From Escherichia coli (GTDB lineage: Bacteria > Pseudomonadota > Gammaproteobacteria > Enterobacterales > Enterobacteriaceae), in assembly GCF_041248615.1 (NCBI RefSeq), contig NZ_CP158425.1: a DNA stretch of 64,000 nt. One strand, given 5' to 3'. A program made the position numbers. Below, one piece after another: positions 24,001-30,000 of this stretch (its first letter is position 1; each line of letters begins with the position of its first letter).

Positions 24001-27000
24001 GTCTGGAAGCCAACCCTGCCAGTGCGAGCATTGAACGGCTATTCAAGGTGTTTTCCATCCTGGGCGTAAAAATCAGCTTCTCCTCGGCAACCACCTCTTC
24101 AGAGAGGAAGCAGACGGAAGAAATGCTTAAATCAAACTCACCTGCACGACAGGAGGATTGGTAACGATATGAGCCGGAAACAGCAACGTCTGGTAATTTG
24201 GATGAACGGCATCAAAGTCGGGTACTGGGAAAAAAGCAAAGGGGTAGACAGCTTAGAATACCTTCCTGAATGGGTTGCTGACGAACAGGGAAGGCCGCTG
24301 TCATTGTCCCTTCCTTTTACTCCCGGGAACCAGGTCTGGCGTGGAAATGTGGTACGTGACTATTTTGATAATTTACTGCCGGACAGCGAAGGCATACGCA
24401 GACGTCTGGCAATGCGTTACAAGGCCGATAGCCTGGAGCCTTTTGATCTGCTGACGGAGCTGGGAAAAGACTGCGTGGGCGCGATACAGCTGCTTCATGA
24501 CGGAGATGAACCCACTGATTTATATTCCGTGAAGTATCACCCGCTTACTGAATCAGAAATTGCGGCAACTTTGCGTAATACCACGGAGACATTGCTACCG
24601 GGCAGGCCAGAAGATAACGACGACTTACGTTTATCTATTGCCGGTGCTCAGGAGAAAACAGCCCTACTGTGGCATGAAGATCGGTGGTGTATGCCGGAGG
24701 GTAATACACCAACGACGCATATATTCAAGCTACCGCTCGGACTTGTGGGGAACATGAAAGCCGACATGAGCTCGTCGGTTGAAAATGAATGGCTCTGCTC
24801 GGTACTTCTCGGCCAGTACGGGCTCCCCGTGGCAAGAACGCAGATTGCTCACTTTGAAGATCAGAAAGCGCTGGTGGTAGAACGTTTTGACCGAAAATGG
24901 TCAGGAGACGGACAATGGATCATTCGTTTACCCCAGGAGGATATGTGTCAGGCCCTGGGCGTTTCGCCATTACGAAAATATCAGGCGGACGGCGGGCCAG
25001 GTATATCGGAAATTATGGAGGTTCTGAGTAATTCAGACCGTGCTGAGCGTGACAAAGCGCAGTTTTTTATGACGCAGATAATTTTCTGGATGATGGCCGC
25101 AACAGATGGCCACGCTAAAAATTTCAGTATTTCTATTGGGCCACAGGGACGTTATCACCTTACACCAAACTATGATGTGTTGTCGGCATGGCCGGTGATC
25201 GGTCATGGGAACAATCAGATATCCTGGCAGAAGTGCAAACTGGCGATGGCCGTACGTGGCAGTAGCAACTATTACCAGATATATCGAATACAACGACGCC
25301 ACTGGATCAGGCATGGTGAGATAACCGGCCTGAGTAAACAGCAGACAGAGGCGATGATAGAGGAAATCATCGCCAGAACCCCGGGTGTCATTGAACGTGT
25401 TAGCGGGCTTCTTCCGGACCAGTTCCCCCAGCAGCTTGCGGAAAGTATTTTTGATGGAATGAGGCAGCAATGCAGGCGCCTGGCTGAGAAATGACAGCCG
25501 CAATTTATAGTGTGCATGTTTTCAGAATAGCTGATGTAAGCGTGAGGATTCAGTATGACTGAAGAACAAAAAAGAATAGAGCGGGCTATTGAGTTGGCTT
25601 GTCGTTACGGCGGAACCGATGAAATGCATCATCTGCAATGGGTCGTGGATCAGATGGTAAGAGAACTTGCTGGAGAACGTTATGCACAGATTGTAGCTGA
25701 TGCCACCAGCGGAGAAGATGGGCCTGATACTTACAAATGGAGTGTTGGGATCGCGCCTTAACAGCTGTCGGTCTGGGGGTGAAAACGTATTCTTCATTCA
25801 GCGAATTCCCAGGCTTCACATTAAGACTAAAGCGGCGGCCGCAGTAACGTAAGAGAAAATAAATGGCTATTTTAGCAATCATTGCAGTTATCGCCCTGGG
25901 TGGGTACGCCTACGGATTTATTAAAACCCGTGAGCTGAGCGCTTTGCGTAAAGAAATGAAACTATACGTGGATCGCATGGAAGCGGCGGAGCTGGACTTA
26001 CACGCAATCAGAAGTGTAGCGGAGCACCGGTTGCACGGTGCAGGTAAACAGTTTGCCGACCTTTACAGCCGTATCGACGGTGCAACTGTGACGCTGACAC
26101 CCGAAGATCAGCTGTTACTGGCAACGATGCCATTTAATATTCAGGATGTAGAAGACATCGTAAACGAGCGCGGTCCAAAGACAATTAGCGGCCGTCCATT
26201 CTGGGAAGTTGAGCCAGGCCCGCATGATTATGAATATGGCCCGCAATATCCGTATTTCCCAGACCAGCGCTAGGAAGAGATCAAGATGAGAGAGCCAAGA
26301 CCACGCCATACCTTGCAGGTCATTCGTGTACCTTCTCTGGAGGTTCAGGACCTGGGGCTGACCAGCTTTGATAGCTGGCTTGACGAGCACGGGTATGACA
26401 AAACGAATGCCAGAAATAACCGTACCATCTGGGCGAGAGAAGGCGGATGGCATCTGAAACGTTGCAGAAATCTTGAAACTGGCACGGACGATTTCTGGTT
26501 TATCGCTTTCGATGGTAAAGGCGGGAAGATTTACCCGCTGAAAACCCAAAGAGACTACCGGGCTGCATATCGTAAGCTGGAAGCAGAAGGTTATGCGCCT
26601 GCGGTCATCGAGCAAATGACCACAGGCGCAGCATATAACCTGGCCTATCCACGTTCCACCCTAAAACAAGCTGAGACGGCCACCAGCGAGCCAATTCGGA
26701 AACCTGACGTAGATATCCAGGGTGAGCACTGCGAGCGCGTAGTGACGCAACGTAGTGGCGTGGCACAGGGTAAATTCAAAGCTCTGCTCATCGAGAATTT
26801 CGCAGGCCGTTGTGCGGTAACCGGTTGGGTTAATGGAGGTGTCCTGGATGCGGCACACATTGAACATGGAACCCGGTACAATCCGTCTAATGGCATCCTG
26901 ATGACTCCAACAATGCATGCGCTGTTTGATGCCGATCTTATGGGCATAGATCCGGCCACCCTGACCGTTCATTTTAAGCCAGGCATTGAGGTGGGCGAGC

Positions 27001-30000
27001 TGTTTGAAGGCCGTAAAATCACACCGCTGGTGTACGATCTGGACTTAGAGCGGCTGGCCGTACGCTGGGCAGAATACCAGGGCCTTGCTCAGGACCAATG
27101 AAGGGTGACAGCCAGGTTGTGCCTAAACCTGGCAGTAAAACCTGCATGCCACAAACCTTTAAATTCTGACTCAAGAGCCTGGCACAAGATAAAAGCGAAA
27201 TGAAAAGGTTAAAACCGGTGCACCAGACCTCTTAGGTTTAATACCTGAGCCAGTATACTGGCAGTCTCAGGTAAGTGGGTATCATACACTTCAGAAATAT
27301 CCACACCGAGATAACCGCAACAGTTAAAGAGCTAAAAAGGACGGTTTTAATTTTATGAATAAAACAGCTTTAATTATGATTCTGGGAATCCTCGGATGTG
27401 GTAAAGCATTTGCAGCCACTGAATTACAGCTCCAGCAAAAACGCGTTATGCATTTCTGTGCCAATGCCAGCCTTCCGTTGTTGATTGCCGGTACAACTTA
27501 TGCGAATACGTCTGACAATGGACGACCAGAAAAAGAAAGAGTGGCAATCCTGAAAAATTCAGTTGCAAGCTCGACAGCTTATAAAATGGCATCTCCCGGA
27601 GTTCAGATGGCCATGATGAGCGTGGTGGAAGATATTGCCGATCCGAAAGAATTAGCTCTACATCAAAAAGAAGTTAGACGTCTTGGGGCTAGTTATCTTT
27701 CCGACAGCGGTGTTTCATGGGCTTCAAAAACTGTTTCACCATTTACAGCCTGGTGTAACTTTAACCGTTTAGAAAGTTAAGGCTGGCAAGGCGGTTTCTG
27801 TTCAGGAAAGTTACTTTCCGTGCGGGGACCGTAAGATACAGATAAAGCTTAAGGCCTTTGAATTTTTGGAAAGCATTTGAAAATTTCATTGCGCTTGTCT
27901 GATATGAAACAGCCCTGCATTTCTGCAAAGGCTGAAAGAGTGTGTACGGACTTTGGAAGGAGTGATGATATACGCCTGAGCCATCCCATCACCGCAGACA
28001 GGGTAATTAACCCTGACTAAAGCTTTCACCTATTCCGTCGCTCGCAAGCGGCTTTCGCACACTAACGAAGGTATGGCCTTTCGTCGGTGTTAAATTTTTC
28101 GGCTATTTGCAATCTGAGGTTGGATTGTAGATTTTAGTTAGAAATGGATCAAAGTCCGTTTTGTGCAAAACTTGGTTGACAACCCTCTTTTGGATGATGT
28201 GCCGTTTCGTGCAAAAGTTGGTTGGAGGCCAAGATGGCAGAGTTCGTAGGTTCGGCTGCTTCGCAAGCTGATTTCATTTGGAAGAACGCGGAAGACCTGT
28301 GGGGGGGGGATTTCAAGCATACCGACTTCGGCAAGATCATTTTGCCGTTTACCCTGCTGCGTCGATTGGAGTGCGCACTGGAGTCTACACGGGAAGCATC
28401 GCTCGATAGCCAACCAGCCACGATTGAGTTCTTAGAAGCAGAGTTCAGTGTTGATTTCGATGCGCTGCTATCTTGACCGCCAATCAGACCCGCATGGTTC
28501 AGGTTTGTGTATGAGAGTCCCCAAATGGCTGTAGTTCTAACCAAAGCCTTGATTGAAGCCGGCCGCACCGGAAATAGTGGGTACAGAAAAAAGCAGTTGC
28601 TTGCGCTGGGCGTAAGTAACCCGCCGAAAAGCGGCTGGATCGAACGACTGATCGGCACTGAGGTATCTGACGAGCAGTACGAACGCTTTCTGGGGCACAG
28701 CACGAGCAAGCTGCATATTCCGGTCGAAAATGAACACCTATTCCGGTTTAAAATGAACGCTGATTCCGGCTTGCGTGTACACCGATTCCGGACACCTCAG
28801 TGCACGTACTCTGATGTCAGATGAACCGTCCTGTTCCAACGTCTTGGATCCACAACTGCCGCGCTGCGCTTGGCTGCTGGCTTGTTCAGTGAGTCGAAAA
28901 GATGCCTCCCCTCAAAGCTCAGCTTCTGCTCGAAGAATCCCTGTCCGCATACTTTCCGGAATCACTGTTCAACTTCACCGGAATACGCACAAGCAGGCTG
29001 AACAGATCCTACGCGGAGAGCAGCCAGCCAAGGGGCTTCAGTATGCAAAGCGAGCGAAGAAGCTCGCTTCTGAAAGAAAAGCCACAATTGATCTGGATAA
29101 CGAGCACCTGTCTGAAATCGAAAAGTATCGGTAGCCCTAGACTTTTAGCCGCTGAAGATCTCTTAGATACCATTGGTGAAACTTGCTGAAGTCAGCCTTC
29201 TGTTTCTCTACCGTGCTTTTATAGATCGCATCACTGGTAACCGCACAAGCAGTCCAGCCAGCCTCATAGACGAAGCGAGTAGCTATCGGTGACTTCTTCG
29301 GGGTGCTATCCCAGCGGTTTTTGAGCCACCGCGCAAGCCCTTCATCAAGAGGGACAACCAGATTTAGCTGCTGTTTTGTGCGAGTGATACCGACATAAAA
29401 CAGCCGACGTTCCTCCTCGATTACCTCTTCGGTCGGAGGGGTGTTCATCGATGTGCGAACGCTGTAAACATCATCGGGTTTGCCGCCAGGAAATTCCTGC
29501 TCATTCAGCCCGACCAGTATTACGTTATCCCACTCCAGCCCCTTGGAACCATGCAGTGTGGAAAGGATGAAGGGATCGCAGTCAGTTGCAGCCTCGCCTG
29601 GATTCAAGATAAGGTTTAAAAACGTGCGGGAATCGATCTTACTGGAGACAAGTAGCTCCTCGATCCTCTTGACCCCTCGTTGCTGGTCGTTCGATCCAGT
29701 GCGAGTTACACCCTCAGAGCCAACACTATCAATGAAACCCTCCATACGCAGGCGTAGTAACACATCGATAGCAGGCGTTTCCTCTCCGTCTTTCTGGCAG
29801 ATAGTGGCGAGCCTGCCCAGCCGATCTTTTTGGTTTTGTGCGCCCTCGAATAACTGGCCTAGAGCAGACCATAGGTCGGCGTGCGGAGCCATCAATCCAC
29901 TGAGCGCCGCTTTGAATTGCCCTTTCTGCCAGCTAAAACCAGCCTCCTTCAGAAAGCCGTAAACAATCGCTTGTTTGTTGGGATGGTTTTCCAGTAGCCG

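Follow-up and report, generated by a model that had tools for sequence, protein, structure and literature searches.

The locus studied here, in a 64,000-nt stretch of an Escherichia coli plasmid (contig NZ_CP158425.1 of assembly GCF_041248615.1, hereafter the window), raises the question of why an HNH nuclease gene, a broken methyltransferase gene with a run of nine G, a CoiA-like/UvrD-like gene pair and a second HNH gene stand next to each other. An earlier note made from the sequence had read positions 25555-28830 as a three-gene HNH unit beside a methyltransferase remnant with a hallmark of phase variation, within a degenerating restriction or defence island. We found that this region belongs to the accessory part of an IncHI2 plasmid, where two unrelated things stand side by side, a transposon remnant and a nuclease of 271 amino acids (aa), hereafter HNH271. 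We are confident that a decayed ISKpn25-type transposon plus HNH271, as a solitary sensor-linker-HNH nuclease, best explain the locus. What is new is a transposase-less ISKpn25-family element with CoiA/UvrD cargo inside the presumed IncHI2 backbone; no such element is entered in the accessory-module list of the IncHI2 plasmid MF788071 (PMC11783820). The window itself is the backbone of a multidrug-resistance IncHI2 plasmid of the mcr-1 type: positions 13401-41400 are collinear with pEGY1-MCR-1 at 99.98% identity, positions 25400-29400 match a group of E. coli plasmids sized 150-280 kb at 100% identity, and the relatives of the window were typed in PLSDB as IncHI2A, MOBH and conjugative.

The transposon is a 4,387-bp transposase-less derivative of the ISKpn25 (ISL3) family at 28101-32487 (plus strand). 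It begins with a 24-bp left inverted repeat (IRL, GGCTATTTGCAATCTGAGGTTGGA, 28101-28124, plus strand) and ends with a right inverted repeat (IRR, reverse complement GGCTATTTGCAAACTAAGGTTGTA, 32464-32487, minus strand) that matches the IRL at 21 of 24 positions; both are of the GGCTATTTGCA type, and the same IRL, with 2-3 mismatches, starts ISKpn25 in pKpQIL and in the Aeromonas plasmid pAeca1-a. Immediately outside stand the two copies of an 8-bp target-site duplication (TSD), AATTTTTC, at 28093-28100 and 32488-32495, the left junction reading ...GTTA[AATTTTTC]GGCTATTTGCAATCTGAGGTTGGA... and the right one ...TACAACCTTAGTTTGCAAATAGCC[AATTTTTC]AAACTTTGC.... Two plasmids have the corresponding empty site. 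Against the R478-like pRIVM_C033144_1, 28101-32487 is an insertion whose flanking positions overlap by 8 bp, with a single AATTTTTC; the same empty site, again with a single copy, occurs in pSAL4614-1, a plasmid of the window's own lineage with flanks 99.9-100% identical. The earlier note had missed that a single mobile element comprises the methyltransferase remnant and the CoiA/UvrD pair together with the terminal repeats.

ISKpn25, a "transporter" insertion sequence of the ISL3 family, is 8,154 bp long and encodes, besides hsdM, hsdS and hsdR, a transposase of 422 aa (PMC8796155). In capture experiments its insertions were flanked by AT-rich duplications of 8 bp, CATTTTTC being one example (PMC8768599). 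We found it with 8,154 bp and the TSD GAAATTAG in pKpQIL, and with 8,113 bp and the TSD AAACAAAG in Aeromonas. The window element shares with it the terminal repeats, the AT-rich 8-bp target duplication, a left end with two subterminal repeats and the start of hsdM (first 297 bp at 75% identity) and a related right end (last ~93 bp at 76-78% identity), with no further DNA in common. It differs in lacking the transposase, hsdS and hsdR and in keeping only ~54 codons of hsdM; its interior consists instead of 399 bp of filler, a MITE (a transposable element of the miniature inverted-repeat kind) and the CoiA-like/UvrD-like pair.

The methyltransferase-like fragment recognised earlier is indeed the N-terminus of a type I hsdM (28234-28397, plus strand). 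The PADLOC MTase_I profile matched it over positions 6-57 of 661 only (E=3.5e-16), tblastn with the ISKpn25 HsdM gave 74% aa identity over HsdM residues 1-70, which is a partial match to the N-terminal domain, and PGAP annotates an incomplete HsdM N-terminal pseudogene in identical plasmids. A PLSDB search with 27990-29140 aligned 28091-28397 at 75-79% identity with the 5' ends of full-length methyltransferase genes heading hsdM-hsdS-hsdR operons on pKpQIL-type Klebsiella plasmids and on one Aeromonas plasmid. At the head of these intact operons stands the same inverted repeat as in the window, and behind them come a transposase gene of the ISL3 family and a right repeat that matches. In the alignment, homology extends from 28101, 134 nt upstream of the ATG, up to ~28397, and sliding-window DNA identity is 0.7-0.9 within these limits and 0.3-0.45, the background level, outside them. 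The S-adenosylmethionine (AdoMet)-binding and catalytic N6-methyltransferase domain was not found, as the hsdM homology ends at ~28397, and the pKpQIL HsdS, HsdR and transposase had no tblastn match anywhere in the 64 kb. The in-frame TGA to which the break had been attributed (28474-28476) is the plain end of an open reading frame (ORF) that reads through into unrelated DNA. Since homology already ends at ~28397, the TGA is not the lesion, which is a deletion of everything after codon ~54. The gene is truncated at this point in every IncHI2 copy examined.

Upstream of hsdM lie two subterminal direct repeats with the core TTGTGCAAAAnnTGGTTG (28145-28224, plus strand). Their copies, at 28145-28178 and 28191-28224, are 34 nt long, 79% identical and spaced by 46 nt (the coordinates given earlier imply 45). 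The imperfect direct repeat of the earlier note is therefore real; it is not a local duplication, as both copies are kept in the pKpQIL and Aeromonas elements. That the copies are conserved while the spacer diverges, and that they are found only at the hsdM-proximal end, suggests that they belong to the functional part of the ISKpn25 left end, either as a putative hsdM regulatory region or as an asymmetric transposase site. We rejected the idea of symmetric transposase-binding sites because no right end has them, and a leading-region single-stranded DNA promoter (Frpo-like), considered for the conserved upstream DNA, was dropped once the transposon end had been identified. A GGTTGG-like core is common to the direct repeats and the inverted repeats. 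Consensus promoters and terminators in 27780-29140 were no more numerous than in shuffled sequences.

A parent for the element is found in a larger intact variant of ISKpn25, with the order hsdS-hsdR-tnp-UvrD-CoiA-IRR, present at three locations of K. pneumoniae type, of which one is on a plasmid and the other two are distinct chromosomal sites. Its HsdR and transposase are 97.9% and 92.7% identical to those of ISKpn25, and the CoiA/UvrD pair stands between the ISKpn25-type transposase and the right inverted repeat. Positions 29080-32487 of the window match the right arm of this variant at 88.5% identity and end at the same repeat. The window element is thus an internal-deletion derivative of the larger variant, whose length would be ~11.45 kb by our arithmetic. 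The missing part begins at hsdM codon ~55 and ends 31 nt beyond the stop codon of the transposase gene, and is bridged by the 399-bp filler (28398-28711 and 28995-29079, together spanning 28398-29079), which is interrupted by the MITE and carries a chimeric ORF, ORF108. Neither filler nor ORF108 has a DNA match outside IncHI2, and ORF108 has no Pfam match.

The same decayed element, with an identical hsdM breakpoint, is present in the R478-like lineage at another place, upstream of the 130-aa gene p130, where it is flanked by a different 8-bp duplication, TAAACATA. The decayed form thus occupies two sites with two different duplications and therefore moved after its decay. A transposase with the DDE_Tnp_ISL3 domain was not found in it, and it is hence a non-autonomous derivative and no autonomous member of the family; mobilisation in trans by an ISKpn25-type transposase, presumably, is the natural way to account for the move. 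Could the scar instead be the leftover of a resident type I restriction-modification (R-M) operon of the IncHI2 backbone, decayed in situ and moved or re-ordered by ordinary recombination? Decayed R-M genes are frequent on large plasmids, and the R478-type site of the window lineage (site 1) has undergone an imprecise loss of ~770 bp of flank, as such a history might leave. However, ordinary recombination would not be expected to yield 24-bp terminal inverted repeats identical in type to those of ISKpn25, perfect 8-bp duplications at two different sites and precise empty sites in two plasmids, nor does it fit intact ISKpn25 copies that begin at the same nucleotide in unrelated replicons, and we regard decay in place as very improbable.

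Several observations nevertheless weigh against the derivation from an ISKpn25-type transposon, or limit what can be drawn from it. The 399-bp filler has no identifiable origin, being without homology to ISKpn25 or to the larger variant. No ISL3 transposase was detected by tblastn with the ISKpn25 transposase in the 64 kb, and mobilisation in trans is therefore something that we infer. The direct repeats are not mirrored at any right end examined and occur at the hsdM-proximal end only, and a scan of 27780-29140 gave no plus-strand sigma-70 consensus promoter upstream of hsdM. Finally, the R478-type site in the window lineage is missing the element plus ~770 bp of its flanks and is not a clean empty site, so that it does not tell in which direction, or how many times, the element moved between the two sites.

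The most economical course of events would start from an intact structure IRL-hsdM-hsdS-hsdR-transposase-(UvrD-like, CoiA-like)-IRR. Loss of the interior, from hsdM codon ~55 to just beyond the transposase gene, would have produced the 4,387-bp non-autonomous element with both inverted repeats kept, and this decayed element, mobilised in trans, would have inserted with the 8-bp AATTTTTC duplication into the spacer between neighbouring HNH_2 genes. A later 764-bp deletion would have cost the plasmid a 102-aa gene, p102, as well as codons 1-158 of the second HNH gene, the 278-bp MITE would have landed in the deletion-junction DNA, and the G tract would have grown from G6 to G8 or G9 by replication slippage in a functionless gene.

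The MITE (28712-28989) is bounded by 13-bp terminal inverted repeats (TIRs), TGC(A/G)TATTCCGGT, which occur twice in the window versus 0.12 times expected, and by a 5-bp duplication, CAAGC, at 28707-28711 and 28990-28994. Compared with the R478-like copy of the transposon, which is the empty site, the window has 283 bp extra, corresponding to the MITE plus its duplication. Like the qnrS2 mobile insertion cassette and the MITEs of Aeromonas (PMC5444012), it combines TIRs with a short duplication and has copies in Aeromonas and on IncQ plasmids: a full copy in A. caviae is 92% identical, and its ends are common to the DNA flanking qnrS2 on an IncQ2 plasmid. Unlike the elements of that paper, the insert is geneless, and it is not the MITE with a 75-bp core described there. 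In silico removal of the MITE restores ORF108 (108 aa, 28525-29134), which is probably spurious, as it is made up of filler and conserved intergenic DNA and resembles no family. The stretch delimited in the earlier note ended inside this MITE, at 28830.

The G9 tract (28301-28309, plus strand) lies in the frame of the hsdM scar (CTG TGG GGG GGG GAT, LWGGD). It is the sole homopolymer of at least 7 bases in the window, in which ~0.36 runs of at least 9 are expected from base composition. The intact genes read CTGTGGGGGGAC (G6, Aeromonas) and CTGTGGGGTGAC (G4TG, pKpQIL) at this position, and the window has one extra Gly codon. Among IncHI2 plasmids we verified G9, G8, G7 and G6 alleles by alignment, all differences falling inside the tract. 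A census with an 80-nt query returned 800 plasmids, 193 of them identical (G9) and 605 in the 95-99% band, with aligned spans of 79, 78 and 77 nt (inferred G8, G7 and G6) in about 470, 95 and 27 plasmids, respectively; these allele counts are estimates from evenly spaced sample rows, and some of the G7 and G6 calls may be long-read homopolymer errors. Plasmid NZ_MK477618.1 has G8 although it shares the MITE with the window and is 100% identical to it in the HNH block, so that tract length must have changed inside the lineage to which the window belongs. The methyltransferase homology, the variable tract and the conserved repeats on which the earlier note had staked its reading are thus all present.

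These features could suggest a phase-variable modification gene, in which slippage would switch a methyltransferase, a short regulatory peptide or the downstream genes. In its favour, a 9-base mononucleotide tract in the 5' part of the hsdM frame reaches the tract length by which phase-variable hsd genes have been defined in the literature (Atack et al., 2020, PMC7383803), and as in these genes the length differs between isolates (G6-G9), even within one lineage. The likeness ends there: in contrast to those genes, no functional gene lies downstream of the tract, and a full-length gene whose expression could be switched was not found. With ~54 codons left and no AdoMet-binding or catalytic domain, hsdS or hsdR in the whole window, there is nothing for slippage to switch. 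The tract of the intact relatives (G6 or G4TG) is too short and in one case interrupted, the commonest allele, G8, is out of frame, and we saw no evidence that anything downstream depends on the frame of the tract, ORF108 being a chimeric ORF split by the MITE. Switching by this tract is thus hardly credible, and the simplest reading of its variation is unconstrained replication slippage in a dead gene. The methyltransferase remnant is ordinary plasmid wear and tear and no switchable modification gene, and a G9 inside an hsdM frame, even if variable between isolates, is no sign of phase variation when the gene is a stump. A second polymorphism of the slippage type affects an A-run in the non-functional DNA of the filler and ORF108 (28594-28603; AAAAAAG versus -AAAAGG in the R478-like copy).

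The second HNH gene was correctly placed at 32790: the annotated coding sequence, 32790-33128 (112 aa, plus strand), is an HNH_2 ORF. By tblastn the protein is full length (285 aa) in pRIVM_C033144_1 and pSAL4614-1 and truncated in the window, where a remnant of residues ~159-285 occupies 32745-33128. A 764-bp deletion with the microhomology TCTGTCACCAGT, whose junction lies at 32745-32756, removed p102 and codons 1-158, and the catalytic domain was kept while the N-terminal domain and most of the linker were lost. Related plasmids likewise have an HNH paralogue of 236-291 aa shortly downstream of HNH271, and in same-lineage and R478-like plasmids the two HNH genes are neighbours with small genes alone between them.

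The layout seen earlier, with HNH paralogues bracketing the remnant and the CoiA/UvrD pair, is therefore real, and its meaning is another one: a 4.4-kb transposon lies between former neighbours, as the empty sites in sister plasmids indicate, and the bracketing is a by-product of its landing between two neighbouring genes. The stretch from HNH271 to the second HNH gene might alternatively be a single defence island of co-adapted genes, the pair being flanked by the HNH paralogues for a functional reason, and the company of defence-type genes (hipBA, two HNH_2 genes, a helicase-nuclease pair and an R-M scar) would be in keeping with that. Yet the bracketing is a recent accident, the HNH genes being adjacent in the empty-site plasmids, and R478-like plasmids have the CoiA/UvrD element elsewhere; moreover, the second HNH gene is truncated, and in other plasmids the UvrD gene is split by IS4321 and HNH271 by IS26. 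A co-adapted island is accordingly most improbable. What holds of the degenerating island is the decay, visible in the hsdM scar, the 5'-truncated HNH gene, the MITE-split ORF and the copies of HNH271 disrupted by IS26 elsewhere.

The cargo of the element consists of two genes on the minus strand. The UvrD-like superfamily 1 helicase (679 aa, 29137-31176) matched GajB-like in PADLOC (1.4e-51), its matches to the NCBIfam PcrA/Rep/UvrD models being far below cutoffs. The CoiA-like protein (31173-32159, 4-nt overlap with the helicase gene; longest ORF to 32177) has a Pfam CoiA_N match at residues 33-65 and belongs to a family of 328-aa proteins of Gammaproteobacteria with 46-89% identity. Annotation of its start is inconsistent in RefSeq, with 284 aa in pEGY1-MCR-1 and 328 aa in pRIVM_C033144_1; the family length supports a predicted start at the ATG at 32159. 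In this family the CoiA-like gene is always followed by a 679-682-aa UvrD-like helicase gene with overlapping reading frames. The pair was seen in Halomonas, Vibrio, Zhongshania and Klebsiella, and in the first three its neighbourhoods are mutually unrelated and often defence-like.

The pair resembles the Gabija and Nhi-type systems in that the helicase scores best against GajB profiles and the partner is a putative nuclease, from its family name only. It differs from Gabija in having a CoiA-like partner and no match to GajA (ATPase-TOPRIM), and Gabija is thus not the right assignment. No PADLOC system model fits the pair, the CoiA-like partner having only a weak match to the DruB zinc ribbon, and a literature search for CoiA and UvrD together with defence systems retrieved neither a description nor a defence phenotype; the pair is accordingly a candidate for an uncharacterised defence system.

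The other component of the locus, HNH271 (26286-27101, plus strand), comprises an N-terminal domain (N-domain, residues ~5-120), a linker and a C-terminal Pfam HNH_2 domain (residues 176-222) whose catalytic H191, N202 and H211 are invariant. A profile of the HNH271 core found one solved protein in the PDB, VcaM4I (6YEX, E=1.5e-10); phmmer with HNH271 itself had no match there, and only the profile search succeeded. VcaM4I is an EVE-linker-HNH enzyme dependent on 5-methylcytosine or 5-hydroxymethylcytosine, and its HNH domain is toxic in isolation (PMC7897488). With VcaM4I and TspA15I-type EVE-HNH endonucleases, HNH271 has in common the succession of N-domain, linker and C-terminal HNH_2-type domain and a similar size, and its HNH domain and the pre-HNH "GQGxFR" segment align with VcaM4I. 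It differs in that its N-domain is neither EVE/PUA nor SRA nor any other recognisable sensor. Among the features of type IV enzymes, we thus found an HNH_2 catalytic domain homologous to those of modification-dependent restriction endonucleases and no recognised sensor domain (PUA/EVE, SRA, YTH, SBD or wH).

The N-domain is predicted with good confidence (AlphaFold2 (AF2), mean predicted local distance difference test (pLDDT) of 88) and has no structural relatives in the PDB or AFDB outside its own small enterobacterial family. The same family, and no recognised sensor, emerged from the profile search that the earlier note had called for: phmmer against 1.84 billion representatives followed by a profile search gave only a few relatives, all enterobacterial, besides numerous truncated copies. 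The N-domain also matched repeat proteins weakly through a "GWH" hairpin motif, which we took for noise at the level of the motif. Our best guess is that HNH271 would be a solitary sensor-linker-HNH nuclease of type IV style with ligand binding through an orphan N-domain; most likely, it would bind some DNA feature through this domain and cut with the HNH domain. Two points weigh against this assignment, namely that the N-domain matches no known modification sensor, the type IV-like mechanism being drawn from architecture and HNH homology only, and that the block of small genes around HNH271, discussed below, has been kept at 95% identity in two IncHI2 lineages, so that an operon particular to these lineages is conceivable.

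The ORFs of 68, 136 and 271 aa, the 12-nt gap, the transmembrane-like segment and the HNH_2 domain described earlier were all recovered. On the plus strand, HNH271 is preceded by p68 (25555-25761, 68 aa), which has no Pfam, NCBIfam or PADLOC match and one weak PHROG match, and p136 (25863-26273, 136 aa), predicted to be membrane-anchored by a hydrophobic segment at residues 2-20 (AILAIIAVIALGGYAYGFI, Kyte-Doolittle 19-mer mean 2.23) and without a family match. The gap between p136 and HNH271 is exactly 12 nt and contains a Shine-Dalgarno-like AGGAAGAG. Downstream follows p141 (27355-27780, plus strand), a predicted lipoprotein with a hydrophobic N-terminus (signal MNKTALIMILGILGC..., ...LGILGC) and no family match.

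A functional multi-gene system formed by p68, p136 and HNH271, possibly with p141, for instance a membrane-anchored sensor or immunity partner or a toxin-immunity set, is suggested by the shared orientation and the 12-nt gap with its Shine-Dalgarno-like sequence, and by the intactness of the four-gene block in the two IncHI2 lineages despite the surrounding rearrangements. The comparison with other replicons points the other way. Full-length homologues of HNH271 are few (78-84% identical in related plasmids, 42% in Enterobacter). Beside the 78-80% homologues, p68, p136 and p141 had no tblastn match (E<=1e-3), and the interval from the conserved p130 to the HNH gene is filled by varying genes; the 42%-identical homologues adjoin a helix-turn-helix gene and an integrase instead. 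Outside IncHI2, only the HNH gene matches at the DNA level (~75%), and larger relatives of HNH271 keep the N-domain-HNH core and add their own N-terminal extensions. As the three small proteins are likewise without any family match, we consider such a system unlikely, though less so than the alternatives weighed for the transposon. The three-gene unit of the earlier note is rather a lineage-specific synteny within IncHI2, whose small genes are not conserved partners, since distant HNH271 homologues lack both. HNH271 is also often disrupted in other IncHI2 plasmids, by IS26 or another truncation: many R478-like plasmids match only to ~26714, and truncated products ending in ...GTVAK, read as the translated IS26 end, occur in >100 contigs each. 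Given these many disrupted copies, HNH271 is dispensable.

Taken jointly, it is possible, and we put it forward as a speculation only, that CoiA/UvrD is an uncharacterised two-gene anti-phage or anti-plasmid module on ISKpn25-type transposons, that the 4.4-kb derivative can be mobilised in trans and that the N-domain of HNH271 represents a new class of DNA-modification sensor. If this were true, defence cargo would accompany a type I R-M system or take its place, on a mobile unit counted as plasmid backbone. The locus itself indicates that ISL3 "transporter" elements swap defence cargo (type I R-M with or without CoiA/UvrD) and can stay mobile without a transposase of their own. In ~800 IncHI2-type plasmids, many of them carriers of mcr-1 or mcr-9, a 4.1-4.4-kb segment apparently treated as backbone is a non-autonomous ISKpn25-family transposon, for which at least one move inside the plasmid is on record. 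Once it is recognised, a rearrangement that defines a lineage, the truncation of the second HNH gene and the hsdM pseudogene flagged by annotation pipelines are accounted for.

Along the window, the genes follow one another in the order ter operons, p130, hipB-hipA (23868-25494), p68, p136, HNH271 and p141, then the hsdM pseudogene, a small ORF, the UvrD-like helicase and CoiA-like genes (both on the minus strand), the short HNH gene, a 67-aa gene and H-NS (minus strand). No Rfam match was found in 22000-35000, and no local protein scored above the NCBIfam cutoffs. R478-like plasmids have three additional genes between p130 and hipB, whose products are a trypsin-like protease, a membrane protein and a third protein of 462 aa, and which are missing from the window lineage (23589-23718 versus 3885-7220 in pRIVM_C033144_1). 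At its other end, the first position of the window already lies in mcr-1, which lacks ~4 nt for this reason; pap2 and ISApl1 come next (1-3700), and this mcr-1 end differs slightly from that of pEGY1-MCR-1 by an inverted segment containing ISApl1.

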